The translations under genes and the position numbers were made by a program. 64,000 nt of DNA from sequence record ON862890.1; one strand, 5' to 3'. The first letter of the stretch is position 1, and every line of letters starts with the position of its first letter. The notes under the pieces are model-generated. The model saw nothing but the letters and a program-made list of their open reading frames with translations, was not told the DNA's origin and did no database searches. Positions 2,031 through 60,663 of this stretch are shown one piece after another. The stretch comes from Escherichia phage A221.

Positions 2031-2070
2031 CATACCATAAATAATTGAATACACACAGCGGAGATACATC

Positions 2071-2241: not shown

Positions 2242-3008
2242 TCCCTAAATACCCCCATCATCCATGGGGGTATTTTCTTATGAACGCACAGATCTATGAC
2301 GCCCTATCACAGGGCAACGCCTTTACCAATCCTCTCCCGTCCCTCAGCAGCGCCTCACAGGGGTTAATCACCAGTGGTAAGGCGACTACAGCGTCACTGG
2401 CTAACACCGGAAATGCGCAGATTCAGGAAGCGCTGACGGCAGGTGGGTTGACTACAGCCAAACTCAACGAATCTACAGCAATGTTCAACTCAGCCAACAA
2501 CAGCATCACTACTTTGAACAACTATGGCGACCAGTCAGTGAAAGAGGCATATTCCCGCATCGGTACATCTGTGTCGTATAAGTCCGCCCTGAAGTCTATA
2601 GGTCGAGAACCGAACAACTGTGATCTGATCAATAATGCATTTGGGGTTATTCAGAACCTCGGCAAACAGTGGATCAACACCATGCAAAGTGTTCTCACAA
2701 CTATCACAAACAAGATGAATGAGCTGGCTGAGTTGGTAGCTCAGGGCGTCGGTGCTGGTCTTGATGCTATTCAGGCACTGGCTGCTGAAGTTACTCAAGC
2801 CATCGACACCGCTGTCGCATCAGTAGCCTCTATTGCTCAGGACATCACGAACGGTATTGCAGCAGAGTTAGCCCATATCCAAGACATGGTTGGTAAGTGT
2901 CTTAACTTCTCTTTTGCCAACGTGATCTCAGAGTGGGCGAAAGATATCTGCGCCGGAGGTGTCATCAACAGCATTGGTTCCGATAATCTGAAGAACGCAC
3001 TGAAGTAA
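2238..3008 (+). CDS. hypothetical protein (256 aa, Ala/Ser/Thr/Asn-rich)
   Basis: ORF track; translationally coupled to upstream small ORF. Confidence 0.45.
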   Translation: MIPKYPHHPWGYFLMNAQIYDALSQGNAFTNPLPSLSSASQGLITSGKATTASLANTGNAQIQEALTAGGLTTAKLNESTAMFNSANNSITTLNNYGDQSVKEAYSRIGTSVSYKSALKSIGREPNNCDLINNAFGVIQNLGKQWINTMQSVLTTITNKMNELAELVAQGVGAGLDAIQALAAEVTQAIDTAVASVASIAQDITNGIAAELAHIQDMVGKCLNFSFANVISEWAKDICAGGVINSIGSDNLKNALK

Positions 3009-4698: not shown

Positions 4699-5445
4699 AT
4701 GGCATCTCTCCAGGATCTACGCAAGCTGAATGACTTCGAAAACCGTCATTACACATTTCAGCAATACGAACTTCCTCATAAGGAACTGGAGTGTGTTACG
4801 ACGGAGAATGGTCGTCATTACGTTTCACCGTCTGGTGTAAAACTGACATCCGTCACGACTATGCTGGGGCGCACTGGAGATCATGAATGGCTTGAGTCTT
4901 GGAGGAAGAAGCTGGGCGCAGAGGCCGCTGACCTTGAGACCATGCGCTGTGCTGACCGAGGGGAGAAGCTGCACCTTGCGTGTGAACTGTATCTAAAGAA
5001 CCGCCCAATGAAAGAAGTGTTGGAAGCGGCTGGCGAATACATGTTCATGTTCAAGCAGCTGTTCCCTTACCTGAACAAGATGACAAAGATCTATGCTCAG
5101 GAGATCCCATTATATAGTGAGGTGCTTGGTCTTGCAGGTCGTGTAGACCTTATCGGGGTTTATGAGGGTAAACCTGCTGTCATCGACTTCAAGACATCGA
5201 ACACCATGAAGACGCGGGGCATGATCGAGGATTACAGTATCCAGCTGTGCTTATATTCGGTCATGTTCCAGCAGATGTTCGGCGTCAAGATCACCCGCCT
5301 CATCAACGTGATTGCCAACGAGTCTTCCCCTCTACCAACCGTCATTGAGTTCAACCGTGATGACATTCTGACAAAGATGTTTGAGCGTGTTCGTCTGTAT
5401 CATCGCATGGATAAAGAACAAAACGGAGTCTGGCCGGATCACTAA
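4699..5445 (+). CDS. PD-(D/E)xK-type nuclease (RecB/Cas4-like fold)
   Basis: GAGGA RBS; motif GRVDLIG...VIDFKTS resembles D...(I/V)DxK nuclease core. Confidence 0.5.
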   Translation: MASLQDLRKLNDFENRHYTFQQYELPHKELECVTTENGRHYVSPSGVKLTSVTTMLGRTGDHEWLESWRKKLGAEAADLETMRCADRGEKLHLACELYLKNRPMKEVLEAAGEYMFMFKQLFPYLNKMTKIYAQEIPLYSEVLGLAGRVDLIGVYEGKPAVIDFKTSNTMKTRGMIEDYSIQLCLYSVMFQQMFGVKITRLINVIANESSPLPTVIEFNRDDILTKMFERVRLYHRMDKEQNGVWPDH

Positions 5446-5473
5446 ATACCCCATAATCCTTGGGAGATTTTGT

Positions 5474-7731: not shown

Positions 7732-8400
7732 ATGCAAGAGATCACTCTCTCCGAACGTACACTTCAGTTGCTGGCCAACTTTGAGACCATCAACCCATCT
7801 ATCGTTCTGACACCGGGCAAGATGCTGCGCAGTATTAATGATTCTTCTACTGTGATCGCCGTGGCGCAGATCGAAGAAGACTTCCCGTTTGAGTTCCCGA
7901 TTCTGGACCTGACCAAACTTCTGGCCATCCAGCGCCTACCTTCCTTCAAAGGTGCCAAAGCCGAATTCCATCAGGACTACATCCTGTTGAAAGGCGAAAG
8001 TTCTCAGCTGCAATTCTGGCGTTCTGCTAAAGAACTCACTGTTGTTCCGGCTGACACCATTGAACTACCGTCTGTCGACTTTGAAGCGATCATCACTCCA
8101 GAGAAGATGAAAGAACTGACCCGCGCCTGTTCTACCCTCGGACACAAGACTGTGCGCCTGGTTGCTCAGGGTGGCAAAACTCGCCTGGTTGCAACCACCA
8201 CTACCCTGGACAACTCCAACAACTACACTGTTGAGCTGGGTGAAACCGCGCTGCCGGACTTCGTAATGCCGCTGGATGTTGCCAACCTGAAAATGATCGA
8301 AGGCAACTACACTCTGCGTGCATGTGCTGATCTACAGATGGTGAACTTCCAATCATCCGACGCGACGATCAATTACTTCGTCGGCGCACAGATTGAGTAA
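7732..8400 (+). CDS. 45: sliding clamp (gp45 family)
   Basis: 222 aa; N-terminal LLANFETINPSIVL and C-terminal ANLKMIEGNYTL resemble T4 gp45; sits before gp44/gp62. Confidence 0.85.
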   Translation: MQEITLSERTLQLLANFETINPSIVLTPGKMLRSINDSSTVIAVAQIEEDFPFEFPILDLTKLLAIQRLPSFKGAKAEFHQDYILLKGESSQLQFWRSAKELTVVPADTIELPSVDFEAIITPEKMKELTRACSTLGHKTVRLVAQGGKTRLVATTTTLDNSNNYTVELGETALPDFVMPLDVANLKMIEGNYTLRACADLQMVNFQSSDATINYFVGAQIE

Positions 8401-9475: not shown

Positions 9476-9898
9476 ATGGCCGCCCTTGGATTGTTCGATT
9501 ACCTGGCTGCTCTGAACAGCAGCAAAGAAAACCTTTTGCGGTCTGATGACCCAGAAGTGTTGAAAGGATTCGACCCGTTTATGACGCGGCGTGGTTTAGC
9601 TCAGAGCAAAGACACTCTAGTGGCTGCGCAACAGATGAATAAGCTACATGCTATCACTCCATGGATGCAATGGTCATATGCCTTTTACACCATTCCGGCT
9701 CGGAAACGCTACGACAAATGGTCTAAGAAAGGTCCGATTGATCCTGACGTGAAGTTACTCTCAGAGTACTTCTACATCAGCATGGAGAAGGCATCGGAGT
9801 ACGTCCGTTTCTTGCCGAAGGAAGTCCTGGCCGAGATACGCGAGAAGATGAGACGCACTGAGCTGAACGCCAAAGCGAAACCGCGCAAGGCTAAATAG
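9476..9898 (+). CDS. 62: clamp loader small subunit (gp62 family)
   Basis: Start 5 nt after gp44 stop; motif PARKRYDKWSKK resembles T4 gp62 PRGKRYGKWAK; synteny. Confidence 0.65.
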   Translation: MAALGLFDYLAALNSSKENLLRSDDPEVLKGFDPFMTRRGLAQSKDTLVAAQQMNKLHAITPWMQWSYAFYTIPARKRYDKWSKKGPIDPDVKLLSEYFYISMEKASEYVRFLPKEVLAEIREKMRRTELNAKAKPRKAK

Positions 9899-25255: not shown

Positions 25256-26974
25256 GTGACAGCATTCAACCAATATACCAAGGCGCTTGACGGCGTCGGA
25301 CCAGTCAGCATAGACCGCATCAAGTCTCTTGCCACTGAGTTCTTCCCGTATGACACCGCCAACCCCGGCCAGATGGAATGCATCGTTGAAGCCATTGATG
25401 CCCTTGTGAATAAGAAATTCAAACACGTGATCATCGAGGCTCCGACTGGTGTAGGTAAATCCCTCATCGGCACTACCATCCATAATGTGCTTCGCCATTT
25501 GGTTCTTGAGCACAACCCGTATGGTCAGTTCCGCACGTCTATCACGACGCCGACCAAAGGTTTACAGGATCAGTATGCAGCAGAGAAAGCCGTGGCGATA
25601 GATATCCTGAAGGGCAAGAAGAACTACCGTTGCCACATCAGTCCCGACCTATACTACAACGCCATTCAGTGCCGTATGGCATGCCGTGATGGCCACTGTA
25701 GTAAGAATCGTTGCCCATATGTTCAGGCGCGTCGACAGTGGACCGACGTCTCCTCCCTGCGCTGCACCAACGCCGCCATGATGGTGGAGATGTGCACGAC
25801 GATCTGTATGAAGCCGGAAAACCGCGCCGATATGCTGATCCTTGACGAGTGTCATAAGATGCCCTCTACGCTGCTAGAGCATACTATCATGGAATACAAC
25901 ATAAAGGCTGTGGAAGGGTTGCTTACGATCCCCGAGGGAGTGCCTATCGTGGAGACCATCAAGGATATCATCATCCGCACAGAGAACTATGAATTGGGCA
26001 AGCTGTATTCCCTGTCTGGTGAGATGCATGCGATATTTGATGAACTGCACGGCAAGGTTGAAGCCCTGTTGGAAACTCTTGAGGAACTGGTAGAGGACGA
26101 GCGCCTGACTGAAGCCCAGGTGATGAAGCTGTCTGATATTATTGATACTCTTCACAACCTCAGCGACTACTGTGGTATCATGGGGCAGACCAACGCCAGC
26201 ACTTTCATCGTACAGGAGAAGGACAAGGGTATGATTCAGTTCAAGCCTGTCATCGCCTCTGATGTATCCCAGTTCGGCCTGTTCCGCAAGGGTGACTACC
26301 ACGTCCACATGTCGGCTACCATTTGTGGGATTGACTCGTACGCCCGGTCACTGGGTATCCGCGAGGGTGAGTACCACAAGATACAGATCGGCAACCCTAT
26401 CCCGATTGAGAACCGGAAAGTCAACTACATGCCCATCATGAAGATGACAGCGAACATGGGTGACTACGAGATGAAGAAGCTGGCTGAATACGTGGATGAA
26501 ATTATCGCGTTCCACCCTGGGCAGTCTGGCATCATTCACACAGTCAGTTATGACCGCGCCCTGGCTCTACAAAAGTTCAGTAAGTACCGGAATATGATTC
26601 ACGTTCCTCGTACTCGTAAGGCTCTGATGGACATCATGGAACACGCGTTCAGGACGAAGACACCTTGTGTCATCGCCAGTCCGGCCATGGAAGAGGGGTA
26701 TGACTTCAAAGGCGATTATAGTCGATTTCAGATCTTGATCAAGGTGCCATATGATTACCTTGGTGATCCTCTGGTGGCCCACGTCAACAGTGTGGACCCA
26801 TCGGCGTACTTCAGGATGGCGGTACTGCGTATCGTTCAGATGTGTGGGCGTTCGGTCAGGGGTGTGAATGACTGGGCTGCGACGTACATCCTTGATTCTT
26901 CTTTTGAATCACTGATGATGCGCAACCCAGAGTTCTTCCCCGCTTGGTTCACTGATGCCGTGTTTGAGGTTTAG
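25256..26974 (+). CDS. XPD/DinG-like SF2 DNA helicase with Cys-rich insert
   Basis: GTG start with AGGAGGA RBS; Walker A APTGVGKS, DECH box LILDECH, Cys cluster between them. Confidence 0.65.
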   Translation: MTAFNQYTKALDGVGPVSIDRIKSLATEFFPYDTANPGQMECIVEAIDALVNKKFKHVIIEAPTGVGKSLIGTTIHNVLRHLVLEHNPYGQFRTSITTPTKGLQDQYAAEKAVAIDILKGKKNYRCHISPDLYYNAIQCRMACRDGHCSKNRCPYVQARRQWTDVSSLRCTNAAMMVEMCTTICMKPENRADMLILDECHKMPSTLLEHTIMEYNIKAVEGLLTIPEGVPIVETIKDIIIRTENYELGKLYSLSGEMHAIFDELHGKVEALLETLEELVEDERLTEAQVMKLSDIIDTLHNLSDYCGIMGQTNASTFIVQEKDKGMIQFKPVIASDVSQFGLFRKGDYHVHMSATICGIDSYARSLGIREGEYHKIQIGNPIPIENRKVNYMPIMKMTANMGDYEMKKLAEYVDEIIAFHPGQSGIIHTVSYDRALALQKFSKYRNMIHVPRTRKALMDIMEHAFRTKTPCVIASPAMEEGYDFKGDYSRFQILIKVPYDYLGDPLVAHVNSVDPSAYFRMAVLRIVQMCGRSVRGVNDWAATYILDSSFESLMMRNPEFFPAWFTDAVFEV

Positions 26975-27738
26975 TAACCCGCAACGAAGGACAGATGGCA
27001 CTTGACATTCGGTTCCAACGACGTCACAGAAACCGTCATATTGTCCGTATCTTGGCTGAAGTCAATGGTGGCGAGAGGTTTGGTCTGAATATGGTTGTAG
27101 ACACTGTAGATCAGATCCTCGCCACGATACCCTACCTTCCCGTCGGTGTCTTGCCAATGACCCAGTGTCTCATCGTAGACATGCACTCTGAACTCGATCA
27201 TATGGAAGAGTGCCTTGGGGATGTCCTTGAGTACGCTGGTGCCAACCACGGGAATTTCTATGCTGGAATCATTGGAGTTCCCTTCATAGACCGAAGCCCA
27301 TGCAAAGGTAGGATCACCCCCAGCAACAGGGGTTCGCTTCCAGTATTGGAATTCTGGGTTGCCCGAAGCGTTCTTCTGAAGTAGAATGACCTCACCACCT
27401 TTGAAGTTCGAGGTATCGATGTCGCCTCGCTGAAGTTCATCTGCTGGAGATCCAATAAATTTCCAGCCTTCGCGATCCAGTAAAGACTTATAATAGTCGG
27501 TGAACACGTTGCTGTCTTCTGCATCGTTGATGGCATCTTTGAGACCTTGGCCTGTCACCATCTCGTTGAGCTTCAACCACATGTTCTTGACAGCAGAAGC
27601 TGCTGCGACTTGTCCAGCAGTCCCACCTGCAGCATAATCATAGATGATATCTTCTGACTTGATAGCATCATAGATAGAGAGGAGCAATTGCTCAATCTGC
27701 GGGGCGGTGAGACTGAAACGATATGCGCGGGGTGCCAT
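26971..27738 (-). CDS. hypothetical late protein (255 aa)
   Basis: Start at internal Met with AGAGGAA RBS; exact TATAAATA 35 nt upstream on minus strand. Confidence 0.5.
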   Translation of the reverse strand: MAPRAYRFSLTAPQIEQLLLSIYDAIKSEDIIYDYAAGGTAGQVAAASAVKNMWLKLNEMVTGQGLKDAINDAEDSNVFTDYYKSLLDREGWKFIGSPADELQRGDIDTSNFKGGEVILLQKNASGNPEFQYWKRTPVAGGDPTFAWASVYEGNSNDSSIEIPVVGTSVLKDIPKALFHMIEFRVHVYDETLGHWQDTDGKVGYRGEDLIYSVYNHIQTKPLATIDFSQDTDNMTVSVTSLEPNVKCHLSFVAGY

Positions 27739-27773: not shown

Positions 27774-27781
27774 TATTTATA
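27774..27781 (-). promoter_or_regulatory. T4-type late promoter core TATAAATA
   Basis: Exact octamer on minus strand upstream of minus gene 26971-27738. Confidence 0.45.
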
Positions 27782-35403: not shown

Positions 35404-35478
35404 GATAAGGGGGCTGACGCTCCCTTTTGGTTTCGCTAATTAGAAGAAACCGCCGTTAATTCAGTCAGGAGATATAAA

Positions 35479-38199: not shown

Positions 38200-38223
38200 T
38201 CATCGAAAGCCCCTTCGGGGGCT

Positions 38224-38231
38224 TATAAATA
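38224..38231 (+). promoter_or_regulatory. T4-type late promoter core TATAAATA
   Basis: Only exact plus-strand TATAAATA found; 24 nt upstream of ATG 38255; preceded by UUCG-loop hairpin. Confidence 0.45.
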
Positions 38232-38254: not shown

Positions 38255-38560
38255 ATGAAACCGTTTATCGAATATTTTAAAGAACAAGCCGCTAAACCTC
38301 AGACCCATGCTGGTGTCCAGGGTAAGACCGTATCCATCACCAAGCAAGCTGACGGCACTCAGTGGTGCTCCGGTGCTACCGTGACCCAGATCACCCCTGA
38401 CAATCAGGCGGATGTCTACAACCTGGAGTTAACCAACGGCAACACTATCAAGGTGAAACTGACCCCAGACCAGACTCACGGTATCTCCCAAGGTCAGGAA
38501 GTCGTTGCTGTCCATGACGGTTTCGAATTCTTCTTTGGCAAGTCTGCCGACAAAGACTAA
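38255..38560 (+). CDS. hypothetical late protein (101 aa)
   Basis: GAGGAG RBS; late promoter upstream; strong terminator downstream. Confidence 0.5.
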   Translation: MKPFIEYFKEQAAKPQTHAGVQGKTVSITKQADGTQWCSGATVTQITPDNQADVYNLELTNGNTIKVKLTPDQTHGISQGQEVVAVHDGFEFFFGKSADKD

Positions 38561-38600
38561 GTGAAACCATCAAGATGACTCTGGTCAAACAGTGATTACA

Positions 38601-38632
38601 ATCCCCCTAAATACAGGGGGATTTCTTTTTCT
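38601..38632 (+). terminator. rho-independent terminator
   Basis: Stem ATCCCCCT/AGGGGGAT followed by TTCTTTTTCT. Confidence 0.7.
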
Positions 38633-41189: not shown

Positions 41190-41338
41190 TCCATACGTGT
41201 AACATAGGGGAGGCAACTCCCCCTATCAGGTCTTGGGAGGAGATCACAGTCATTCAATCCTCTTTAGGCGCTCTCTGGGTTGCTGACACATTCAGAACAA
41301 AGTCTCCCCCAGCTCCTCGAGTAGTTCACTTTCACTTT

Positions 41339-41369
41339 AAATACCTCTGCATTCATTGTGGAGGTATTT
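41339..41369 (+). promoter_or_regulatory. hairpin sequestering the endolysin Shine-Dalgarno
   Basis: 9-bp stem AAATACCTC/GAGGTATTT; GGAGG at 41360-41364 lies largely in the 3' arm. Confidence 0.45.
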
Positions 41370-42197: not shown

Positions 42198-42270
42198 TCC
42201 AATCCTCAGGTATGCTGGGGTTGTCACCTTAATTAGAGGTGATGACACCCTGAGATATAGGAAGGTTCCC

Positions 42271-43113: not shown

Positions 43114-43196
43114 GTAACTCGCCAACCCTCCCCGCCGCCTTCAATCTACGAGGGCGGCGTATAATAAAACCTGCGTAAACAAACCCGAGGAACACC

Positions 43197-46992: not shown

Positions 46993-47454
46993 ATGACAAA
47001 CAAAGTACTCACCAACCCACTGCACAACTTCGGTTACATTCAACTCCCTCTGGTGATCGACACCCTGTACGCCGACGACAAAGAAGAGATCTGCTGGTCA
47101 CCCACCGCACTGATTGAACGCGAAATCTTCAAGTCTGTTGTTGATGTCATGTTCCGTATCGGTCGCAATGGACCTCTGGTCTACCTCGGCAAGGTGACTG
47201 AGTTGAAGACAAGCCACAACGAACGCTTCCTTCGTATCGATACAACGGGGTGCTCTCATCAGGACTTCAACACATTGCGCAATTATGTTCTGGTCAACCG
47301 CCCGGTCAGTCAACACCGCCCGTATCTGACTTCAATGCACATCGACAATTTCATCACCGACGTGCACCTCCGCGCCGAAACCCTCCATGAAGAGGAAACA
47401 GGCCGAGCTATCGACACAGTCTTAAATATGGTTGTGATCACCCTGGCGGAGTAG
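46993..47454 (+). CDS. hypothetical protein (153 aa)
   Basis: CGGGAACTATATC-ATG motif. Confidence 0.5.
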   Translation: MTNKVLTNPLHNFGYIQLPLVIDTLYADDKEEICWSPTALIEREIFKSVVDVMFRIGRNGPLVYLGKVTELKTSHNERFLRIDTTGCSHQDFNTLRNYVLVNRPVSQHRPYLTSMHIDNFITDVHLRAETLHEEETGRAIDTVLNMVVITLAE

Positions 47455-49905: not shown

Positions 49906-49913
49906 TATTTATG
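49906..49913 (-). promoter_or_regulatory. late-promoter-like element CATAAATA (one mismatch to TATAAATA)
   Basis: 34 nt upstream of gp5-like start, same spacing as the exact minus-strand sites. Confidence 0.3.
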
Positions 49914-50210: not shown

Positions 50211-50240
50211 AATAAAAATCCCGCCGAAGCGGGATTACTG
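50211..50240 (-). terminator. rho-independent terminator (minus strand)
   Basis: Stem AATCCCGC/GCGGGATT, loop TTCG, then TTTTTATT on minus strand. Confidence 0.65.
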
Positions 50241-50383
50241 TTTCTTAGACAACCTGACCTTGAGGGCTTCGGTTAACAAGTCAAGATGCCATGGCATCGA
50301 CTCGTTGATTTCAAATATGCTATAGCCGTGTAACTTCAATTCATCACACATCACGAAGTAGGATAATAAATCAGTTTCAAACA

Positions 50384-51190: not shown

Positions 51191-51239
51191 AATGTATCTC
51201 CACGGTATATTGTAAGAGTAATTATAACGAGGAATGAAA

Positions 51240-51764
51240 ATGCGCGGATTTTGTTTTAGTGAAATAGGCAAAGAACTGTCTATACAATATCCCGATCCCA
51301 ACACAGACTTCTTTATCTTCCTGACCGATTATGCCAAGAAAGAGAATATCCTCCATGTGGCAATGAAACACGAAGATTATAAGTTCTGCCGGCTGGGTGT
51401 CAAAGACCTGCTGCGTTATGGTCTACAAGTGGTCATCGTAGACCCATACTACAGCCCTATCGACGATGAAGAAGTTCTGCCCGTATATGTTCACCGCAAC
51501 ATCAATACATTGGAAAAGCATTATCCAGATTGTATTGTCATCGGCGAACTCATCTCGTATTATCATCGTGTGCGAAAGCTGGAACAGATTAAAAGTTATT
51601 TTCAAGAGGGTGTTGGTCAATATAAGATGAATGCCCTTAGTAGTGGATGGATGGTGCTGTCTTCAGCAGGCAGTGCTGACTATATTAAGATGCGTGTCTA
51701 CCAATACGTTGTGGAGCGCGATTATGAACTGGAGAAAAGTAATGCAAAACGAAAAACCCGTTGA
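51240..51764 (+). CDS. hypothetical protein (174 aa)
   Basis: Second ATG chosen for 6-nt spacing from GAGGA. Confidence 0.45.
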   Translation: MRGFCFSEIGKELSIQYPDPNTDFFIFLTDYAKKENILHVAMKHEDYKFCRLGVKDLLRYGLQVVIVDPYYSPIDDEEVLPVYVHRNINTLEKHYPDCIVIGELISYYHRVRKLEQIKSYFQEGVGQYKMNALSSGWMVLSSAGSADYIKMRVYQYVVERDYELEKSNAKRKTR

Positions 51765-52233
51765 ACGTGCTCCGATTGAGGAAGTACAACAACACGTCCT
51801 GGACCTTATGAAACACACAGTTTCTGATGCCGAAGGTAAAGTGCCGGATGAGTTCATCGGTGCGTTCGATCAGGTGGCTTTCGATACCGAGGGAGTTCCT
51901 TTGATCCAGACGATCGCTGGTATGGTTTTGTTTGAACCGAAAGCAGTAGAAAATGGCGTAATCGTCTACTCAGCCAACATTGGTGTGGACGGTGAGTCCC
52001 TGTCTCTCGAAGTTAGCAACATTGCTAAGTACCTGATCAAGTGTGGTTATGATCTGCAGGTTGTGACAGCCCACTATATCGATCCTCAGGGGCAGATCTC
52101 CTACGGTGATGAAGCGCGCAAAGTGAAACGCCACATCGACACTACCGTGATCCTGCAGAGTATCCAACAGATGCAGAAGAACCTGGACCACCCTGGTCTG
52201 ATCCTGCCTGACAGCAAAATCATCACTCGTTAA
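51742..52233 (+). CDS. hypothetical protein (163 aa)
   Basis: Internal ATG with GGAGAAAAG RBS. Confidence 0.45.
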   Translation: MQNEKPVERAPIEEVQQHVLDLMKHTVSDAEGKVPDEFIGAFDQVAFDTEGVPLIQTIAGMVLFEPKAVENGVIVYSANIGVDGESLSLEVSNIAKYLIKCGYDLQVVTAHYIDPQGQISYGDEARKVKRHIDTTVILQSIQQMQKNLDHPGLILPDSKIITR

Positions 52234-52239
52234 CCCAGC

Positions 52240-52284
52240 GTAAATAGCCCATACACCAATGAAACTTTGTTATGGGCTATTTAC
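52240..52284. other. perfect 14-bp inverted repeat GTAAATAGCCCATA/TATGGGCTATTTAC with 17-nt spacer
   Basis: Right arm ends 1 nt before ATG 52285. Confidence 0.8.
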
Positions 52285-52875
52285 ATGAAATATTGCGGAA
52301 TCGACTACTCCTATGGTTGTCCATCCCTGTGCTTCTGGGATGATAAAGACCCTCTTGATTTTGATCATCTGCGCTTCTACGCATATTATACTGTGGAGAA
52401 GTACTGCACTCAGATTCGTCAGAACATCCTTATCATGAAGCAACCGAAGTGGGAGACCCCAGAAGAACGCTTCTATAACATCTGTAAATGGGCTGAGGCT
52501 GTCCTGTTGACTGAGAAGCCGGATGCGATCACTCTTGAAGGGTATGCTATGGGCAACTCTAAGAACTCCAACAACATATGCCAGACCGCAGAGAACACCT
52601 CACTGTTGAAGCAAGCCCTGCGCCGTAACAATTTCGACTTCCAGATCGTGACGCCATCCCATGTGAAGAAGATGTTCACCGACAAGGGCAACGCCGATAA
52701 ACACGCCATGATCGCTCACTTCGAGTCACTGTTCAATGTTAGCATGCGCGGTATAATGGATATGTTGGAAGTTAAGGATCCTAAGCCAATCGATGACCTC
52801 GTGGATTCGTTTGCAATAATGGCTTGTGGCTCTTACTTCATTGAGAATAATCCAGACTTCAACAGAGGTGTATAA
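52285..52875 (+). CDS. possible RuvC-like Holliday-junction resolvase
   Basis: N-terminal MKYCGIDYSYG, later TLEGYAMGNS and DSFAIMACGS resemble RuvC-fold acidic motifs; weak. Confidence 0.4.
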   Translation: MKYCGIDYSYGCPSLCFWDDKDPLDFDHLRFYAYYTVEKYCTQIRQNILIMKQPKWETPEERFYNICKWAEAVLLTEKPDAITLEGYAMGNSKNSNNICQTAENTSLLKQALRRNNFDFQIVTPSHVKKMFTDKGNADKHAMIAHFESLFNVSMRGIMDMLEVKDPKPIDDLVDSFAIMACGSYFIENNPDFNRGV

Positions 52876-53186
52876 TGGTCGATTACTGGTTGTTGGCGAA
52901 CTTCCTGACGTTCGCTTTGTTGTTAGTGGTTGTCTTGGTCTGGGTGAAGTCGTTCTTCACTCTGGTTCATGCGTATGTGTACCAGATCAACTTCTACACA
53001 CTGTCCCCACATCGTGACACGAACGTTCGTGCCGATCAACAGGCCGAGGCTATCCTCTCATATCAGTTCATCCACATGCGCGATAAAATGATCAAGCGTG
53101 TAGTGTTTTCTACAGTGATGTTGCTGGTTATCATTATGGTACGTTTCGTGCTGACAACCGTGGGGGTGTTCCATGCCGCTGTATGA
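52875..53186 (+). CDS. membrane protein (103 aa)
   Basis: Hydrophobic N-terminal and C-terminal helices. Confidence 0.45.
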   Translation: MVDYWLLANFLTFALLLVVVLVWVKSFFTLVHAYVYQINFYTLSPHRDTNVRADQQAEAILSYQFIHMRDKMIKRVVFSTVMLLVIIMVRFVLTTVGVFHAAV

Positions 53187-53418
53187 TTATCAATGCAAGG
53201 GCTGTGGTAACGCGATGACACTGCGTAAATCTATTGCAGATCGCCACGAGCCTGAATCCAACCCCTGTACTGAGTGCGGAGGGGAGATTAAAATGATCGT
53301 GGGTGCTCCCAAGATTGTCTCTGGGGTGAAGGGACCGCAATCAGCTCCAGACGGCTTCAAGGACGTCTTGCGTACGATAAAGAAGGGTTCGGGTAAGGGG
53401 AACACAATCGATGTCTGA
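53173..53418 (+). CDS. zinc-ribbon protein (FmdB-like)
   Basis: MPLYDYQCKGCG...CTECGG. Confidence 0.5.
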   Translation: MPLYDYQCKGCGNAMTLRKSIADRHEPESNPCTECGGEIKMIVGAPKIVSGVKGPQSAPDGFKDVLRTIKKGSGKGNTIDV

Positions 53419-53656
53419 CGAAAAACAGCCAGCGCTTGTGATGACACCAGAATTATTTTCTGAAATCGTCCTACTACGCGCTGCCCAAACCAAGGATAGT
53501 ATCCTTGAGACTCTGGCAGCTGTCTGTGAAGAGAACGACATAGACGAGACCAAAGTCAAAAAGATGATTACAGCACCATTGTTGTCACGACTGACAGCTG
53601 AGTGCTCCGATGCGCGCCTGATCAAAGACGCGCTAAAGTCCAAGAAATTAGTGTAG
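53411..53656 (+). CDS. hypothetical protein (81 aa)
   Basis: ORF track. Confidence 0.4.
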   Translation: MSDEKQPALVMTPELFSEIVLLRAAQTKDSILETLAAVCEENDIDETKVKKMITAPLLSRLTAECSDARLIKDALKSKKLV

Positions 53657-53663
53657 GTCTATT

Positions 53664-53903
53664 ATGAGCAAAGAATCAATTTACAGCGCAATGAAAGCCT
53701 CCGAGTTCCTTCCTGGCTCTATGCGCTGGCGTGTGGGTAGCCTGAACGAGCATGCCGACCAGACGGATCGTATTCGTTACGTTACCCCTGATGGTCGCTC
53801 ATATGTCGTTGAGTATCACACGCACGACGAAGGCAAGAAGACGTTTTCGGACGTGTTCGACATTATTGAAATTGACCCAGCAAATCAAGTGCTTAAAGGT
53901 TAA
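53664..53903 (+). CDS. hypothetical protein (79 aa)
   Basis: ORF track. Confidence 0.4.
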   Translation: MSKESIYSAMKASEFLPGSMRWRVGSLNEHADQTDRIRYVTPDGRSYVVEYHTHDEGKKTFSDVFDIIEIDPANQVLKG

Positions 53904-54002
53904 TTCAATGTAAGATCGGGGTATAATTACCCCGCTTTGTAGCAAACTGAAAATACATGTAACAGAATAGCCCTGAGGGGCGGAAACAGAGGAAATTAAG
54001 AA

Positions 54003-55019
54003 ATGGGTAATTTATTCGATCGTCTGAAAGCGTCCCGTGGCCAGCAAACTGAAGCTATGCAGGCGCGTCTTGCACAGCAAGGCCAGAAGTCCGGTTTCCA
54101 GAAGGATCCTCGCATCTGGAAATGGACTTGGAACAAAGATGGTATCTCCGAGAACATCATCCGCTTCCTGCCAGTCCCGCTGGTAGACCTCAAGGCACAG
54201 GAAGAAGGGACGATCGATAAAGATCAGATCCTCACCCCTTGTGCCATGATCATGAAACATCAGTTCCAGGGACCTGGTGGTTGGTACATTGAGAACTCAC
54301 CTCAGACGTTCGGCAACGACGATCCGGTGCGCGACCATGACCGTCCGCTGTGGGCGCAGCAGAAAGAAACGAACGACGAAAAGCTGAAGGACATCCTGAA
54401 GAAACGTCTACCCGACACCAAATACTACGCTAACATCCTGGTGATCAAAGATGTCAACGTACCGGAAAACAACGGCAAGGTCTTCCTGCTGGAATTTGGT
54501 AACGCCATCAAGAAAATCCTGGATCAGGCGCAGAATCCTAAGTTCCCAACCGACCCTAAATTCGATCCGTTCGATCTGTGGGAAGGTGCCAACCTGAACC
54601 TGAAGCTCTTTGGCGAGCAGAAGAAGTTTGGGAACTGGGAAGGTCTGGTGGCAAACTTCAGTAAGGTGGTGTGGGAGAACCCTGCCCCGCTGAGTGATGA
54701 CGAAGCGTATATGGAAGACGTCTGGTCTCGCGAGCACAGCCTGTTTGAATTCTTCAATCCGGCTAACTTCAAAGACTACGACTCCCTGGAAAAGCGCCTG
54801 CGCAAAGTTCTGGCAATCCCTGATGACCAGCCTCTGGTTGAAGGTGGTGCAGCCACGATGGCTCATGCTCCTAGCACCCAGACTACACATCAGCCAACTG
54901 CTCAAGACAGCCTGAAACAGCAACAGGCCGCGCCGTCGCAGGCTCAGGCTCAGGCTCAACCAGATGCCAGAAACACGGCTTCCATTGACGACTTCGAGCG
55001 GTATCTCAAGTCTAACTGA
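54003..55019 (+). CDS. 32: single-stranded DNA-binding protein (gp32 family)
   Basis: IRFLP, WYIE, YYANILVIKD...PENNGKVF, WEGANLNLK match T4 gp32; AGAGGA RBS. Confidence 0.8.
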   Translation: MGNLFDRLKASRGQQTEAMQARLAQQGQKSGFQKDPRIWKWTWNKDGISENIIRFLPVPLVDLKAQEEGTIDKDQILTPCAMIMKHQFQGPGGWYIENSPQTFGNDDPVRDHDRPLWAQQKETNDEKLKDILKKRLPDTKYYANILVIKDVNVPENNGKVFLLEFGNAIKKILDQAQNPKFPTDPKFDPFDLWEGANLNLKLFGEQKKFGNWEGLVANFSKVVWENPAPLSDDEAYMEDVWSREHSLFEFFNPANFKDYDSLEKRLRKVLAIPDDQPLVEGGAATMAHAPSTQTTHQPTAQDSLKQQQAAPSQAQAQAQPDARNTASIDDFERYLKSN

Positions 55020-55024
55020 TCAAC

Positions 55025-55052
55025 AAGCCATCTTCGGATGGCTTTTTATTTT
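55025..55052 (+). terminator. rho-independent terminator
   Basis: Stem AAGCCATC/GATGGCTT, loop TTCG, then TTTTTATTTT. Confidence 0.7.
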
Positions 55053-55990
55053 CCCAACACGTCTTGCAATATTCCCAACAGGCTTGTCTTCTCCGCCGCC
55101 GTCAGGTTATCGTTACCCATGATGTCACGAGAGATACCTACCGAGATGCGCTCGAAGTCCTGTATGCTTATCCCAGCCAGGTTGTTTACAAGTTGGTCAA
55201 GCTGTTTGTAAGCCAGGAGAGCCTCTCCTGTGAAGTTCCCTTCTTTCACCTTGCGATAAAGCTGTCCAGCTTTTGAGGCCGCAGTTTCCCAGTCACCACT
55301 GGTAAGAGCGTCAGCAATGCCGAGAGGAAGAAAATCGCTGGAAAGGCTGCGTGTTTCATATTCTGTCTCCGAAAGCACTTTGTTGTAAGAGAAAGAAATG
55401 TTGTACTGGTTGAACTGGTCTGTGGCACCTTTATCCAGCTCAATAGAACTGAAATTTATTGGGTGAGCCTCGACGATGTAGACGCGGTGGACCACTTGAT
55501 CTTCGGTGTCAAGCTGTTCAATGCATATGTCAGTCACGAAGTCTTCGTAATATCCCATTTTGGTGGTGTGTGGATCAAAGATCAGACTCTTCCACTTGTC
55601 CATCACAGACTTCTCATAATAGTCATTGGCTAATAAGAATGACAAGTCGAGGTCGACGTTGGACTTGTTGTTCGGCATCTTGATGTGATTACCGTTGTTT
55701 GTCATTGGAGTGGTGTCGATACCAACTCCTGGCAATGAGGCAACCATACACATCATCTGAAGGGAACGGGACGTCTGGTTTGTCCCTCCAAAGAAAGCGT
55801 TTACAATACGGGCTGACTGCTTAAACAAGTCACCGAAAGATGAATTGGTTCTATACGCCTTTCCGTCATTAGCCAGAGTGGCATTGGAGTCAAAGATCCC
55901 TGGTGGTAGAGGGATGGTCACTCTGAAGCGGTTCTTGCGCGACAAGCCCCGCTGTAATATCTGTGTGATAAAATTGCGATAGTCTTCCAC
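55046..55990 (-). CDS. late structural protein, possibly tail-tube/baseplate (gp48/gp54-like)
   Basis: GTG start with GGAG RBS; exact TATAAATA 34 nt upstream on minus strand; weak N-terminal resemblance to tail-tube family. Confidence 0.45.
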   Translation of the reverse strand: MEDYRNFITQILQRGLSRKNRFRVTIPLPPGIFDSNATLANDGKAYRTNSSFGDLFKQSARIVNAFFGGTNQTSRSLQMMCMVASLPGVGIDTTPMTNNGNHIKMPNNKSNVDLDLSFLLANDYYEKSVMDKWKSLIFDPHTTKMGYYEDFVTDICIEQLDTEDQVVHRVYIVEAHPINFSSIELDKGATDQFNQYNISFSYNKVLSETEYETRSLSSDFLPLGIADALTSGDWETAASKAGQLYRKVKEGNFTGEALLAYKQLDQLVNNLAGISIQDFERISVGISRDIMGNDNLTAAEKTSLLGILQDVLGK

Positions 55991-56024
55991 GGTGAGGACT
56001 CCACTTAAATAAAATAACTGTTAT

Positions 56025-56032
56025 TATTTATA
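56025..56032 (-). promoter_or_regulatory. T4-type late promoter core TATAAATA
   Basis: Exact octamer on minus strand upstream of minus gene 55046-55990. Confidence 0.45.
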
Positions 56033-56043
56033 GGAGTTGACAA

Positions 56044-56748
56044 ATGGCAAAGAATGCAGCTGGCGAAGAAGATCCGTTGCTGTTTCCGGCCGAGATGGAC
56101 GCCCCCGAGCTGGTCAAGCGTTACATCCGCAAGTACCGTCAACACTTCGGTCCAGAGGCGAAGCGTAACATCCGCCGTTCGCATGTGTGGTTCATGGAGC
56201 GTGTGTCTAAGGACGCCAACCTGAGTCCCAACCATATGAAACAGGCGTTTGCTGATCACAAACGTCCGGTACAAGGTGTGCGGTATATAGTCGGGCGTAT
56301 GTTCTATTTCAAATATGATGCTCTGACGAAGAATGAACTACCCTACTGGGATATGTACCCTCTGGTGTTCTTCTTCAACTTTGTCAAGGGTGATGGTATC
56401 ACCTTTGGAGAGAAGGGTGTGACATACCTCTGGGGGCTCAACATGCACTACCTGCCACCGAAGCTCAGGCTGTTGGTGTTTGAGGATCTGATCAAGTTGC
56501 GTAACGAACGGGCATACCGCTCAAAGACGCGTCTGAAGCTCACCTGGGAAGCCCTGAAGCGCTTCGCCAACCATCCGCTGTACAATCACTGTGTGAAGCT
56601 GTACCGCGCCGATCAGTTCCGTTCACAGCTTTACGAGATTGAGCCACAGTACTGGGAGATCGTTCTCTTCATGCGCACTGCCCGCTTCCAGAAACAGAGC
56701 CAGATGTCTGTGTGGAAAGATGCACGTCGTATGCATAAGAAGAAATAG
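56044..56748 (+). CDS. hypothetical basic protein (234 aa)
   Basis: AGGAG RBS. Confidence 0.5.
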   Translation: MAKNAAGEEDPLLFPAEMDAPELVKRYIRKYRQHFGPEAKRNIRRSHVWFMERVSKDANLSPNHMKQAFADHKRPVQGVRYIVGRMFYFKYDALTKNELPYWDMYPLVFFFNFVKGDGITFGEKGVTYLWGLNMHYLPPKLRLLVFEDLIKLRNERAYRSKTRLKLTWEALKRFANHPLYNHCVKLYRADQFRSQLYEIEPQYWEIVLFMRTARFQKQSQMSVWKDARRMHKKK

Positions 56749-56810
56749 TTCTATAACCCGTTCCGAGGGATAATTCGTGAACAGGTAATCCTAAATGATG
56801 AGGCTATAAC

Positions 56811-57560
56811 ATGTCACAAATTTATCGTATGTTCGGGTTAGAGTTTACCCCAGCTCGCCTTGATATGAAACTCCCAAATTTTGAAAAGAGTGGATTCGAA
56901 GTCGGTTGTGTTCTGGGTTTCGATCGAAACGGCAGATCCGTTCGTGAACAAAATATTTTCGATGTTCTGGGTGTGAAACCGGACAGTGAAACAGCAATCC
57001 GCTTCGAAGAGGACATCCGTTTTGGTCATTCCGACCTGTACGATTATGTCCGTGATGTGATCGCTGGTTATGAACACGCTAAAGCACACATGAAGATGGC
57101 CACCGATGCATGCCTGAAACTGGCGCATTGTCTATACTTCTTTGGTCGCAAGCGTCAGAATCTCGATATGGTATTCCCATCAGAACTGCTTGAACGCTTC
57201 TCTGAAACCGAATTTCTACTGAAGCAAGCCGACGGAGTTGCTGTCAAATCTAGTGAAGTATTCAAATACCCGATAAATCTGGTTTCTGGACATCTGCTGG
57301 TAGGGCGTGATCAGGTCGACCTGGCGATTCATCCGGATATGGAGTATGATCAGAACTCCTGTCGTGCCATCCACAACTACGTAGGTGTCATTCTAGAAAA
57401 CTTGTACTCAGCCATGGAAGAAGTGATGGCAGCAGAACAACAGGAAGAAGTGATTCGTCGTATCCGCGAAGATATCGAAGGGAAGGTGAAACAGGATGTT
57501 CTAGGGGAATATCCACCAGAGTATTTCCCTGAAGTTCCAAACTTCTACTTGTCCAAATAA
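56811..57560 (+). CDS. hypothetical protein (249 aa)
   Basis: ORF track. Confidence 0.5.
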   Translation: MSQIYRMFGLEFTPARLDMKLPNFEKSGFEVGCVLGFDRNGRSVREQNIFDVLGVKPDSETAIRFEEDIRFGHSDLYDYVRDVIAGYEHAKAHMKMATDACLKLAHCLYFFGRKRQNLDMVFPSELLERFSETEFLLKQADGVAVKSSEVFKYPINLVSGHLLVGRDQVDLAIHPDMEYDQNSCRAIHNYVGVILENLYSAMEEVMAAEQQEEVIRRIREDIEGKVKQDVLGEYPPEYFPEVPNFYLSK

Positions 57561-57574
57561 CTCCACTGTGAGAG

Positions 57575-57856
57575 GTGTGTATGAAACGTTATCTGAAGCT
57601 GACGACTGTCCTTGAGTCGATCATAGAGTATTTCATCATGCAACACCTCCGCGCCGACAACATGCATTTAGACGGTTGCCTGACGTATGACCACAAGATC
57701 ATTGTCCATTCTGTTGAAGTGGTGGATGATGATCTGATGATTGCAAATGTAGAACACTGTCTGTTTGATGAGTCGGTTGATGCGTACTGTCAACCACGGT
57801 TCGCAAAAGTCGAGCTAACAAATTGTTGGCCGCCGGAAATGGTTTTTCTATATTGA
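57575..57856 (+). CDS. hypothetical protein (93 aa)
   Basis: GAGAGG RBS. Confidence 0.4.
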   Translation: MCMKRYLKLTTVLESIIEYFIMQHLRADNMHLDGCLTYDHKIIVHSVEVVDDDLMIANVEHCLFDESVDAYCQPRFAKVELTNCWPPEMVFLY

Positions 57857-57948
57857 CGTAGAAAGTTAATATTCACGCAAGTTCGCGCTCCGCTTGGTCG
57901 CGCACCTTATAACACTAAGGTGTTAACTTTCTTTTCAATAAAAAGTAG

Positions 57949-57977
57949 TTTACATCTATGAAAATGCAGTATATTAT
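57949..57977 (+). promoter_or_regulatory. sigma70-like early promoter (GTTTACA-N17-TATTAT)
   Basis: Strong match to the recurring promoter family, upstream of a codon-optimised gene. Confidence 0.5.
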
Positions 57978-58045
57978 GTTCTCACTACACAGTCAGAACA
58001 ACAATATGCCGCGGATACGGTCTTAATAACGAAAGGGTTTTTATT

Positions 58046-58882
58046 ATGTCATATATTCTTCATGTGGAATCTGGAACCAAAATTGAAATTGAAGGCAAAG
58101 ACGTTGCTGCTATTCAGGCTGAAATCAAAGAAGCAGGTCTGATCATCGGAAACGTTACCCTGCGCCGTATGGTTGAAGGTGTTCTTCAGGCTGCCAACGG
58201 CTTCGAACTGATTGAAGGTCTGAGCGCCGAAGAGAAGGAAGAAACCCAGCAGGCTCTGGCGCAAGCCCAAGAGCAAGCCCAAGCTGAAGTATCCCTGAAA
58301 GTCGCTGAAACCGTTGATACTGAAGCACCGATCTCTGCCGATGCATGTGTAGCCCCAGTGTCCGACGCCCCGGTAGACGCGGTTGAAGATGCCGTCAACG
58401 CGGCGCTGGAAGAAGGCAATCAGCCGTCCGACGCGAAAATCGGTTCCTTGGCGTCTTCGATGCTGAAAGAAGCATCGAAGGGTAAGACCCTGACCCCGCA
58501 GGCAGCGCTGGTAGAGCGTAAACGCCGTCACACCAAACGTGAGGAAATGGTTGACTTGGCTCGCGCTTCTAATCACGGTCCGGTCTTGGCGGCGATTGAA
58601 GCTGGTGTTGTCCCCGGCGTGTTCCTGAGCTACGTGAACCCAGACATGCGTTGGTTCCAGTTCCCGGTCACCGAACTGGCTAACCCTGAAAACCTTCATG
58701 CTCGCACCAATACGTATGTCGACGTTGCGCCTATCGTTTCCGGTGGCTGGGGCTTCAGTCTGTACGTGAACGGCAAGTCCTTCACCAAACGTCAGAAGAT
58801 CAAAGAGTCTGATGCTGAGTCTCTGGTTAAGGCGATCAATGAATGGCTTCCACAGGCTCTGGCTGAAGCGAAAGCTGTGTAA
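58046..58882 (+). CDS. abundant early protein of unknown function (278 aa)
   Basis: Promoter upstream; codon-optimised; Ala/Glu-rich N-terminal half. Confidence 0.55.
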   Translation: MSYILHVESGTKIEIEGKDVAAIQAEIKEAGLIIGNVTLRRMVEGVLQAANGFELIEGLSAEEKEETQQALAQAQEQAQAEVSLKVAETVDTEAPISADACVAPVSDAPVDAVEDAVNAALEEGNQPSDAKIGSLASSMLKEASKGKTLTPQAALVERKRRHTKREEMVDLARASNHGPVLAAIEAGVVPGVFLSYVNPDMRWFQFPVTELANPENLHARTNTYVDVAPIVSGGWGFSLYVNGKSFTKRQKIKESDAESLVKAINEWLPQALAEAKAV

Positions 58883-58957
58883 ATTTAAGTTCAGAAACTG
58901 TTCAATAGATGAAGGGGTTGCTATAATAGCAGCTCCTTTTGTTTATCGGAGCAGTTT

Positions 58958-59617
58958 ATGTCCTACTCCCTGAAGGGGCTGATGAAGCGCCCCGTCCACA
59001 CATTCTTTAAACCACCCGTCGTAAAGGGGATCTACCCAGCACGAGGGCAAATCTACTACGTCAAAGGCTCCAATGGTAGCGGTAAATCCACTGTGCCGTC
59101 TCAGCTGGCGGAGAGGGATCCTCAGGCGTATGTCGTGACCCATAACGGCAAGGTAATGCTGACTGTCTGTCCTTCGTTCAACGTGGTCTGTATCGGTAAA
59201 TATGACAAGTCGAAGTCCAAGGGGGTTGATTCCCTGAAGGACACTGAGCAGATGTTGTTCGCGTTGTCTATTGCTGACCAACCAGAATACTTGAAATATG
59301 ATGTGATTTTCGAAGGTATCATTCCATCAACATTATTGAGTTCTTGGATCCCCCGCCTGACACGCCCACCACGTGAATTGGTTGTGCTCTTTATGGACAC
59401 TCCCCTTGAAACGTGTATCTCCCGCGTTAAATCACGTAACGGTGGTGTGGACTTCAATGAAGGTCTGGTGGTCGAGAAGTGGGAGAGAGTTCATGACCAT
59501 CGTCAACGACATAAAGACTTGTTCCCTACGGTAGCTGCGGGTATGATGAAGTCTCACGGCCTAACGGTAGACCAGGCTGTGATGGCATTCCTCTGTCGTG
59601 ATTTTGGGAGTATCTGA
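58958..59617 (+). CDS. P-loop kinase (nucleotide or modified-base kinase)
   Basis: Walker A GSNGSGKST; GGAG RBS; stop overlaps next start. Confidence 0.6.
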   Translation: MSYSLKGLMKRPVHTFFKPPVVKGIYPARGQIYYVKGSNGSGKSTVPSQLAERDPQAYVVTHNGKVMLTVCPSFNVVCIGKYDKSKSKGVDSLKDTEQMLFALSIADQPEYLKYDVIFEGIIPSTLLSSWIPRLTRPPRELVVLFMDTPLETCISRVKSRNGGVDFNEGLVVEKWERVHDHRQRHKDLFPTVAAGMMKSHGLTVDQAVMAFLCRDFGSI

Positions 59618-60663
59618 TGGAAATCAAAGCAATTAACAACAATGACATGCTGAAGCAGGCTGTCTTGGCTATCCGTGAATTCGGGATCGAATCTGATCCT
59701 GGTAATGCTGAAATAAATACTGATAGCACCCGCTTCCTTGATGGCGTGACCATAACCGTCGCCGACATCCGTGACCGCTGGCTATCCGTTGAAGGTCGTA
59801 ACTCATCGGCTATCGCTGCCATCGGCGAGACCTTCTGGGTTCTGTCCGGGCGCGATGACGTTCGCTTCCTGTCCCGCGTGTTGCCCCGCGCCGCCAACTT
59901 TTCCGACAACGGCCACACATGGCGAGCCGCTTATGGTCCGCGTCTGTACGCCCATGGCCAGCTGGATAGCGTTATCAACCGCCTGCGCAAGAACCCAAAC
60001 ACTCGCCAGGCGTACCTCACCATCTATGACCCGGCTCTAGATTCGGATGCTGGTCTGGCGAAGTTCAGCGAGAGCGGCGAAGCGAAGACCAAGGACATGG
60101 TGTGTAACTTGGCTCTGTTGTTCGCCATCGTTGAAGGTCGTCTGAACCTGACGGTCATCAATCGCTCACAGGATGTTCTTTGGGGGATGAGTTCAATTAA
60201 CTTCATTGAGTTCTCTATTCTTCAGGAAGTGATTGCTCGGGTGCTGGATGTTGATGTCGGTCAGTACAAGCTATTCTCTAATAATCTTCATTACTACAAC
60301 AATGAAGTCAGCCAGAAGCAGCTGGGCAAGATCACGAAGGACACCAAAGTAGAAGCTGGGTTCATCAACTCCATGATTCACTTCACGAACGTGACCAACC
60401 AGAACCATATCCGCAATCTGTTCACTGGTGTGCTTCATCACTGTGATATCGGCAGCCCGTGGGAAACTGTGGTCGCCCACCTGAAGGAATATGATGCTGA
60501 TCGTGGCCTGATTGTACAGATGGCGTACTGTCTGCACTGCAAACTGAACGAAAAGCTCATTAACCTGGACCTGATTCAGGATCATGGCTTGAACATCGCG
60601 CTCACCCATTCCCCGGTTGACCGCAAGATCGTTGATCCTAAGTTCCTGGAAGGTGTAGTATGA
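59617..60663 (+). CDS. thymidylate-synthase-family pyrimidine C5 methylase/hydroxymethylase
   Basis: NPNTRQAYLTIYDP; catalytic Cys in DMVCNLALLF; NRSQDVLWGMSSINF aligns to ThyA QRSCDVFLGLPFNIA with Asn retained; 348 aa. Confidence 0.75.
   Translation: MEIKAINNNDMLKQAVLAIREFGIESDPGNAEINTDSTRFLDGVTITVADIRDRWLSVEGRNSSAIAAIGETFWVLSGRDDVRFLSRVLPRAANFSDNGHTWRAAYGPRLYAHGQLDSVINRLRKNPNTRQAYLTIYDPALDSDAGLAKFSESGEAKTKDMVCNLALLFAIVEGRLNLTVINRSQDVLWGMSSINFIEFSILQEVIARVLDVDVGQYKLFSNNLHYYNNEVSQKQLGKITKDTKVEAGFINSMIHFTNVTNQNHIRNLFTGVLHHCDIGSPWETVVAHLKEYDADRGLIVQMAYCLHCKLNEKLINLDLIQDHGLNIALTHSPVDRKIVDPKFLEGVV

Follow-up and report, generated by a model that had tools for sequence, protein, structure and literature searches.

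Three copies of the octamer TATAAATA in the DNA of Escherichia phage A221 are very likely -10-type late promoter elements of an Ackermannviridae (Agtrevirus-like) phage. They lie in a stretch of 64,000 nucleotides from sequence record ON862890.1, the whole of which was analysed and is called the window here. All three are intergenic and on the same strand as the next gene. Judged from sequence comparison, the predicted recognition motif in the phage family of the window is (C)TAA[A>T,G]TA, with TAAATA as its discriminating core, and TATAAATA is a minority spelling of it. The boxes are already known as predictions, since the same sites were reported for phages Ag3 (2011) and LIMEstone1 (2012), and the finding is an ordinary one in that respect. 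It upholds T4-style late transcription of structural genes for the Ackermannviridae, as a prediction, and introduces no new kind of element.

The phage and its relatives

Positions 50000-62000 of the window were assigned by megablast to the Ackermannviridae, subfamily Aglimvirinae, and we read the whole window as Agtrevirus-like (ViI/Ag3-like). Identity was 98.9% to Escherichia phages PC3 and PH4, 97.8% to AV101, 92.8% to Shigella phage Ag3 and Salmonella phage SKML-39, and ~86% to Dickeya phage XF4, which is LIMEstone1-like. According to the AV101 and PC3 annotations, the plus strand of the window carries replication and nucleotide-metabolism genes and the minus strand carries short morphogenetic islands: gp25-gp5, gp26, gp54 and a gene for a 255-aa protein (orf255). 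Gene starts in the window are those of the deposited AV101 annotation, mapped by blastn. The complete AV101 genome, assembled from four pieces and with all 199 deposited CDS, was used for genome-wide tallies, and orthologous loci for the conservation comparison were taken from IMG/VR.

The window also contains an insertion of ~850 nt (20716-21549) that is not in PC3 or AV101. Its product, ~277 aa long, has an HNH-like histidine stretch and a NUMOD3 motif (E=7e-9); the gene has atypical codon usage and was rejected by the gene caller. The protein is probably a free-standing homing endonuclease.

Position of the octamers relative to start codons

An earlier note on this DNA, made from the letters alone, had reported the exact octamer at three sites, each a short distance upstream of a start codon, and a one-mismatch box, CATAAATA, ahead of the gp5-like spike gene. 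Direct reading of the sequence confirmed each of these sites and the proximity to starts (Table 1), and the window holds no further exact copy. The starts at 27738, 38255 and 55990 match the deposited AV101 annotation, and a 768-nt gene in PC3 corresponds to the start at 27738.

The same note had cautioned that the number of octamers is near chance and that regular positioning is the real evidence, and both points were borne out. Three copies are present where 0.67 are expected, and three or more occur in 3 of 100 shuffled sequences. As a null for placement, we used the other 55 octamers composed of five A and three T, and counted copies 20-45 nt before a start on the same strand. All three copies of TATAAATA are placed in this way, compared to 17% of the copies of these control octamers in the window (P=0.005). 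AT-rich octamers in general concentrate in intergenic DNA, and across the composition-matched controls the share in the same positional range is 14-17%. A genome-wide tally against starts in AV101 found that 4 of 4 exact octamers are intergenic, co-oriented with the next gene and 23-35 nt before its start (P=4e-4), a result that is not independent of the test in the window, as three of the four are the window's own sites.

Products of the downstream genes

All three genes that follow the octamers have a LIMEstone1 orthologue recorded in GenBank as a confirmed structural protein. For the gp54-like baseplate tail-tube initiator this is ORF50, and for orf255 it is ORF093, identified by a computed mass of 28.32 kDa. 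The third, orf101, is a truncated copy of a virion protein gene and corresponds to ORF080 (189 aa; computed mass 20.27 kDa). In the published LIMEstone1 virion proteome, ORF93 (28.32 kDa, 41% coverage) and ORF80 (20.28 kDa), both confirmed by mass spectrometry, are listed as 'unknown structural proteins'. Since the products of the three genes are virion components, late expression would fit them. It should also be noted that orf101 encodes the N-terminal half only; the full protein has 189-192 aa in LIMEstone1 and AV101, and PC3 shares the short form.

A TAAATA core shared by structural genes

Inspection of all upstream regions in AV101 revealed that most structural genes are preceded by CTAAATA, often followed by a C-rich stretch, rather than by TATAAATA. 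Genes with CTAAATA upstream include those for the sheath, gp22, gp14, gp6, gp48, the tail-spike and the tail-fibre. The hexamer TAAATA occurs 58 times in AV101; although 92% of that genome is coding, 30 copies are intergenic, and 28 lie 23-42 nt before a start on the same strand (hereafter, placed sites). By a stricter measure that combines intergenic location and position, TAAATA scores 24 compared to 0-9 for 14 other hexamers of four A and two T. In the window, 12 of 24 copies are correctly placed, compared to 0-6 for composition-matched A4T2 hexamers. Placement is specific for both strand and distance, whether or not a hairpin is present.

The bases around the core are less uniform. At the 28 placed AV101 sites, the base immediately 5' of TAAATA is C in 13 cases, A in 7, T in 6 and G in 2. 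On the 3' side C is favoured (12-17 of 28 at each position), and five to seven bases downstream A is over-represented. A scan of single substitutions in the core indicated that placement enrichment is kept only with changes at position 4, to T or G. TAATTA is placed in 6 of 32 AV101 copies, including those before the portal, tail tube and gp26 genes, and TAAGTA in 4 of 24, including the one before the gene for the major capsid protein.

The three TATAAATA sites carry the TAAATA core at 23-35 nt from the start codon, within the range of the Ackermannviridae motif. The C expected 5' of the core is absent from all of them, each having A instead (TA-TAAATA). Because A rather than C precedes TAAATA, we regard these sites as variant, not consensus, copies of CTAAATAcCcc. 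The tetranucleotide 3' of the box is tccc at orf255, actg at orf101 and ataa at gp54.

This motif changes what can be said about the octamer. The earlier note had treated the T4 octamer as the sequence that is recognised, and this does not hold for the family: exact TATAAATA accounts for only 3 of the 12 placed TAAATA sites in the window and 4 of the 28 in AV101. As a rule for annotation, one would look for TAAATA, usually as CTAAATA, 23-42 nt before a start codon.

Conservation of the boxes and alternative explanations

Orthologous sites were compared across relatives. Of five distinct lineages, four have TATAAATA as the gp54 box, and LIMEstone1 has TATAAGTA. On the opposite strand of the same spacer, the gp2 box TTAAATA is invariant in all lineages compared. 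The 13 nt between these two boxes differ in sequence in nearly every lineage and are constant in length across genera. At orf255, the box is TATAAATA, TATAAGTA or ATAAATA among orthologues of 60-100% protein identity. The position before orf101 is occupied by TATAAATA, CTAAATA or CTAATTA depending on lineage, directly 3' of a conserved GC hairpin; because this one position alternates between them, we interpret the spellings as interchangeable alleles of one element. We also considered TATAAATA-spelled boxes as a distinct promoter class and rejected this, as orthologous sites switch among TATAAATA, CTAAATA, CTAATTA, TATAAGTA and TATAATTA.

Conservation bears directly on whether the boxes could be -10 elements of host σ70 promoters, early or middle, rather than gp55 promoters. 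TATAAA and AATAAT do resemble TATAAT, σ70-type promoters of the form TTCAAT-N14-TATAAT are clearly used elsewhere in the phage, and a σ70-like match, TTGCCA-16-AATAAT (10/12), overlaps the gp54 box. However, the -35-like hexamer of this match lies on codon 2 of gp2 and drifts synonymously among relatives (TTGCCA, TGGCCA, TAGCCA, TCGCCA), and AATAAT is not kept (AATAAC, AATATC, AATACC) while TATAAATA is conserved. Since neither hexamer is conserved in relatives, the σ70 reading of the gp54 box was rejected. No σ70-like match was found overlapping the orf255 or orf101 box, and the genes downstream of the boxes encode virion proteins. Taken together, host σ70 promoters are a very improbable explanation.

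The octamers might also be chance AT-rich intergenic sequence with no role as promoters, the genes being expressed by read-through or from other signals. The marginal octamer count would agree with this, as would the general enrichment of AT-rich octamers near starts. Against it stand the conservation of the boxes across genera while neighbouring bases vary, and an enrichment of the core hexamer that is several-fold over every composition-matched control. The arrangement of the genes is a further objection. The orf255, gp54 and gp26 islands each have plus-strand flanks and divergent spacers of 45-53 nt, and a box is found in each. Since these islands are on the minus strand among plus-strand genes, they are beyond the reach of plus-strand read-through and would need promoters of their own. 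We therefore consider chance very improbable.

That the conserved boxes act mainly at the level of RNA or DNA structure (as hairpin, processing site or terminator), with the gp55 motif located elsewhere, is very improbable too. In its favour, many TAAATA boxes are in or beside conserved hairpins and the orf101 box adjoins one. Against it, the three TATAAATA boxes are outside strong hairpins (folding energies of -3.6 to -6.5 kcal/mol), the hexamer keeps its strand and its 23-42 nt distance with or without a hairpin, and coincidence would not account for so close a likeness to CTAAATA of Aeh1 and to the T4 box, which is established by experiment.

The hairpin next to the orf101 box ends the 906-aa gene and is kept in relatives. 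The segment 38196-38260 folds at -17.8 kcal/mol with a z-score of -2.1. A terminator scan did not call the hairpin, for want of a T run.

Other candidate boxes in the window

Under the (C)TAA[A>T,G]TA definition, the window holds at least 16 candidate late promoters (Table 1). The scope of the first reading was therefore too narrow: most of these candidates were missed, including the gp2 box, which is only 13 nt from one of the flagged octamers. At gp26, TATAATTA of the window corresponds to TATAAATA in the LIMEstone1 orthologue, which carries a late-promoter annotation. Two further candidates precede genes whose LIMEstone1 counterparts are confirmed structural proteins. One is the DUF5856 gene, with the orthologue ORF078 and an annotated late promoter. 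The other is the 906-aa gene, for which the counterpart, ORF081, is a shorter protein matched by map position only.

Table 1. Late promoter boxes (predicted), genes and hairpin in the window. Gap, nucleotides between box and start codon.
Feature	Position	Strand	Start codon (gap)	Remarks
TATAAATA box, gp54-like baseplate gene	56025..56032	-	GTG 55990 (34 nt)	Predicted late -10 element; predicted transcription start ~56019
TATAAATA box, orf255	27774..27781	-	ATG 27738 (35 nt)	Predicted late -10 element; predicted transcription start ~27768
TATAAATA box, orf101	38224..38231	+	ATG 38255 (23 nt)	Predicted late -10 element, directly after hairpin; predicted transcription start ~38237
CATAAATA, predicted late box, gp5-like hub/spike gene	49906..49913	-	ATG 49871 (34 nt)	Annotated in LIMEstone1
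TATAATTA, variant late box, gp26-like hub gene	51219..51226	-	ATG 51190 (28 nt)	
TTAAATA, predicted late box, gp2 DNA-end-protector gene	56005..56011	+	ATG 56044 (32 nt)	Annotated in LIMEstone1
CATAAATA, 56-aa gene	2036..2043	+	2071 (27 nt)	
CTAAATAccccc	2245..2251	+	ATG 2280 (28 nt)	In 5' arm of hairpin; start matches PC3
CTAAATAcccc, UvsW-like helicase gene	5442..5448	+	ATG 5474 (25 nt)	
CTAAATA, regA-like gene	9891..9897	+	ATG 9928 (30 nt)	
CTAATTA, 906-aa gene	35436..35442	+	ATG 35479 (36 nt)	
CTAAATA, DUF5856 gene	38607..38613	+	38646	In loop of terminator-like hairpin
TTAAATA, endolysin/peptidoglycan-binding gene	41337..41343	+	41374	Late promoter annotated in LIMEstone1
TTAATTA, phoH	42229..42235	+	ATG 42271 (35 nt)	
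TTAAATA	47422..47428	+	47460 (31 nt)	Inside preceding coding sequence
GTAAATA, RuvC-like gene	52240..52246	+	52285	Late promoter annotated in LIMEstone1
gp54-like baseplate tail-tube initiator	55046..55990	-		phrog_3629, E=8e-177
orf255, virion protein	26971..27738	-		phrog_3833
orf101, truncated copy of virion protein gene	38255..38560	+		Residues 1-100 of 189-position phrog_4048
gp55-like late sigma factor, 263 aa	28323..29114	+		phrog_234, E=3.2e-52; annotated gp55 in PC3, AV101 and LIMEstone1
gp33-like late transcription co-activator	53411..53656	+		PF16805, E=8.5e-18; phrog_254, E=2.8e-20
gp45-like sliding clamp	7732..8400	+		phrog_223, E=1.1e-64
GC-rich hairpin AGCCCC-UUCG-GGGGCU	38207..38224	+		Ends 906-aa gene and adjoins orf101 box; no U-tract

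Candidates of the σ70 type, TTCAAT-N14-TATAAT, were located on the plus strand at 43140-43165, 12591-12616, 16160-16184, 58901-58927, 52732-52757 and 95-120. These family-specific elements stand before nrdA and other early genes. In the upstream regions of AV101, the -10 hexamer of such candidates is often in the loop of a GC hairpin.

Late transcription machinery and a proposed mechanism

The gp55-like gene that the earlier note had pointed to is supported by its match to the phrog_234 profile, and the window also encodes homologues of gp33 and gp45 (Table 1). By tblastn, the gp55 homologue is 24-36% identical to gp55 of cyanophages and vibriophages; other gp55s were reached too, with no T4 record among the 40 spread-sampled matches listed. 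A PDB sequence search with the same protein returned noise only (FtsZ, E=0.3). As the protein is very diverged, details of the T4 geometry may not transfer to this phage. A gp55 that is long (263 aa) and distant from known ones fits the altered consensus suggested by the box sequences. An acidic C-terminal extension (28947-29114) reaches ~55 aa past the PHROG late-sigma profile.

The proposal of T4-style late transcription made in the earlier note stands insofar as it draws on the position of the boxes, and it gains from their conservation across genera, the virion targets and the homologues of gp55, gp33 and gp45; the part that falls is the T4 octamer as the recognition consensus. The sequence, position and conservation of the boxes are shown here, as are genes for the machinery and products that are virion proteins. 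From these we infer promoter activity that begins at defined sites, comes late and depends on gp55, gp33 and gp45, as follows. Host core RNA polymerase carrying the sigma-like gp55 in place of σ70 would read the box with no -35 element. Initiation would be activated by gp33 and by the gp45 clamp loaded on replicating DNA. Transcription would begin ~6 nt downstream of the box, at the A residues whose positions are given in Table 1. The predicted leaders of 18 nt (orf101), 30 nt (orf255) and 29 nt (gp54) carry Shine-Dalgarno sequences.

Boxes within hairpins and boxes face to face

At 8 of the 28 placed AV101 sites, the box together with the C-rich bases after it supplies the 5' arm of a hairpin with a folding energy of -15 kcal/mol or below, compared to a strong-hairpin rate of 7% in control leaders. 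The Shine-Dalgarno sequence and the start codon lie in the 3' arm of these hairpins, and an RNA that starts at the predicted +1 would lack the structure. In the window, a late box is in the 5' arm of a hairpin reaching the start at 41339-41369, 52240-52284, 2246-2279 and 5443-5473, with folding energies of -16 to -21 kcal/mol. The hairpin before the endolysin-like gene (41374) pairs with the Shine-Dalgarno sequence GGAGG, and the hairpin before the RuvC-like gene (52285) extends to the start codon. In other genera, compensatory changes preserve the stems at 41374 and 52285: wobble shifts, a switch from A:U to U:A, and a paired base-pair deletion. For this comparison the 52285 leaders were folded one sequence at a time, since the paired one-base deletion misaligned the stem in a MAFFT alignment, on which RNAalifold reported no covariation.

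In the 53-nt spacer between gp54 and gp2, two boxes face each other 13 nt apart, the plus-strand TTAAATA and the minus-strand TATAAATA, and their predicted starts overlap (56017 on the plus strand and 56019 on the minus strand). The same layout is found between gp4 and gp48 in AV101 (37443-37470), with a spacer of 16 nt.

These two arrangements suggest a joint reading, in which a late box can do double duty by way of a start-sequestering hairpin, and face-to-face promoters share one melting region. We offer this tentatively, as a serious possibility that falls a little short of probable. If it is true, about one-third of boxes would double as a hairpin arm, among them the boxes of the endolysin-like and RuvC-like genes in the window and, in other parts of the genome, those of the tail-spike, tail-fibre and gp6 genes. 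Read-through RNA would then stay untranslated, translation being confined to transcripts that begin at the box, and this would amount to family-wide use of a device known from T4 genes e and 49. Facing late promoters in the 45-53-nt divergent spacers would fire in a mutually exclusive manner and their transcripts would overlap at the 5' ends.

A different combination is seen at 38600-38623, between orf101 and the DUF5856 gene. Here the loop of a terminator-like hairpin, AATCCCCC-TAAATA-CAGGGGGATT, contains CTAAATA, and a T run comes after the hairpin. By its sequence, this module would unite a terminator and a late box.

Comparison with known systems

Late promoters of T4 have TATAAATA at -13 to -6, and in many T4-like phages the T at -13 shows little conservation (PMC1524935). 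The mechanism, involving gp55, gp33 and gp45, is summarised in PMC3014915 and PMC1524935. With T4, the window shares the identical octamer at three sites, the lack of a conserved -35 element, the position of boxes before morphogenetic genes with virion products, and encoded homologues of gp55, gp33 and gp45. The family of the window differs from T4 in that the first two bases of the octamer are unconstrained, C is the commonest base before TAAATA, and T or G is accepted at position 4 of the core. It also differs in the C-rich stretch that often follows the box, and in its gp55, which is 263 aa long and very diverged. ViI-like phages hypermodify thymidine rather than cytosine, so that the box itself would hold modified bases.

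The hairpins described above have a T4 counterpart as well. In T4 genes e, soc, 49 and I-TevI, a late promoter lies inside the 5' arm of a hairpin that sequesters the ribosome-binding site (Uzan and Miller 2010, PMC3014915). By their predicted folds, the boxes before the starts at 41374 and 52285, and also those before 2280 and 5474, share this design, with stems that are conserved or compensated. In contrast, the leaders of the three TATAAATA genes fold weakly and the device is absent from them.

In Aeromonas phage Aeh1, late promoters are CTAAATA and gp55 is diverged (Nolan et al. 2006, PMC1524935). The shared features are the CTAAATA heptamer with C at -12, its derivation from upstream regions of late-gene orthologues, and the diverged gp55. 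However, Aeh1 belongs to another phage lineage, and the three TATAAATA sites have A before TAAATA.

Among ViI-like phages, the motif CTAAATAcCcc is presumably defined in the 2012 'Viunalikevirus' paper in Arch Virol. It is quoted in PMC7283392 as the published late motif for these phages, and the de novo motif obtained here matches it. The CBA120 paper of 2011 describes the late motif of the family as not yet identified (PMC3184105). Promoters and transcription are unmentioned in the 2024 review of the family Ackermannviridae, and our literature search turned up neither mapped transcript 5' ends nor a time course for any phage of the family.

Individual sites can be compared with two published lists, whose annotators arrived at the same sites independently. 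The Ag3 paper searched for TATAAATA with one mismatch and gives putative late promoters in its Table S2 (PMC3121705). The gp54 site of the window is letter-for-letter Porf072 in that table, 'tctttgccatttgtcaactcctataaata', and the gp5 site has the same CATAAATA box as Porf084, with one base different in the upstream flank (PMC3121705). Porf072 (window equivalent 56025-56053) is labelled gp2 in the table (PMC3121705), but the listed strand contains the reverse complement of the gp2 ATG and runs toward gp54. The actual gp2 box is TTAAATA, on the opposite strand from Porf072.

The LIMEstone1 paper predicted 33 late promoters (PMC3296691). In the LIMEstone1 record (HE600015), minus_10_signal features with the label 'putative late promoter' mark TAAATA at the orthologues of orf255, orf101, gp2 and gp5, and late promoters are also marked at the orthologues of gp26, the endolysin gene, the RuvC gene and ORF078. 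At the gp54 site LIMEstone1 has TATAAGTA, left unannotated there, in place of the TATAAATA of the window.
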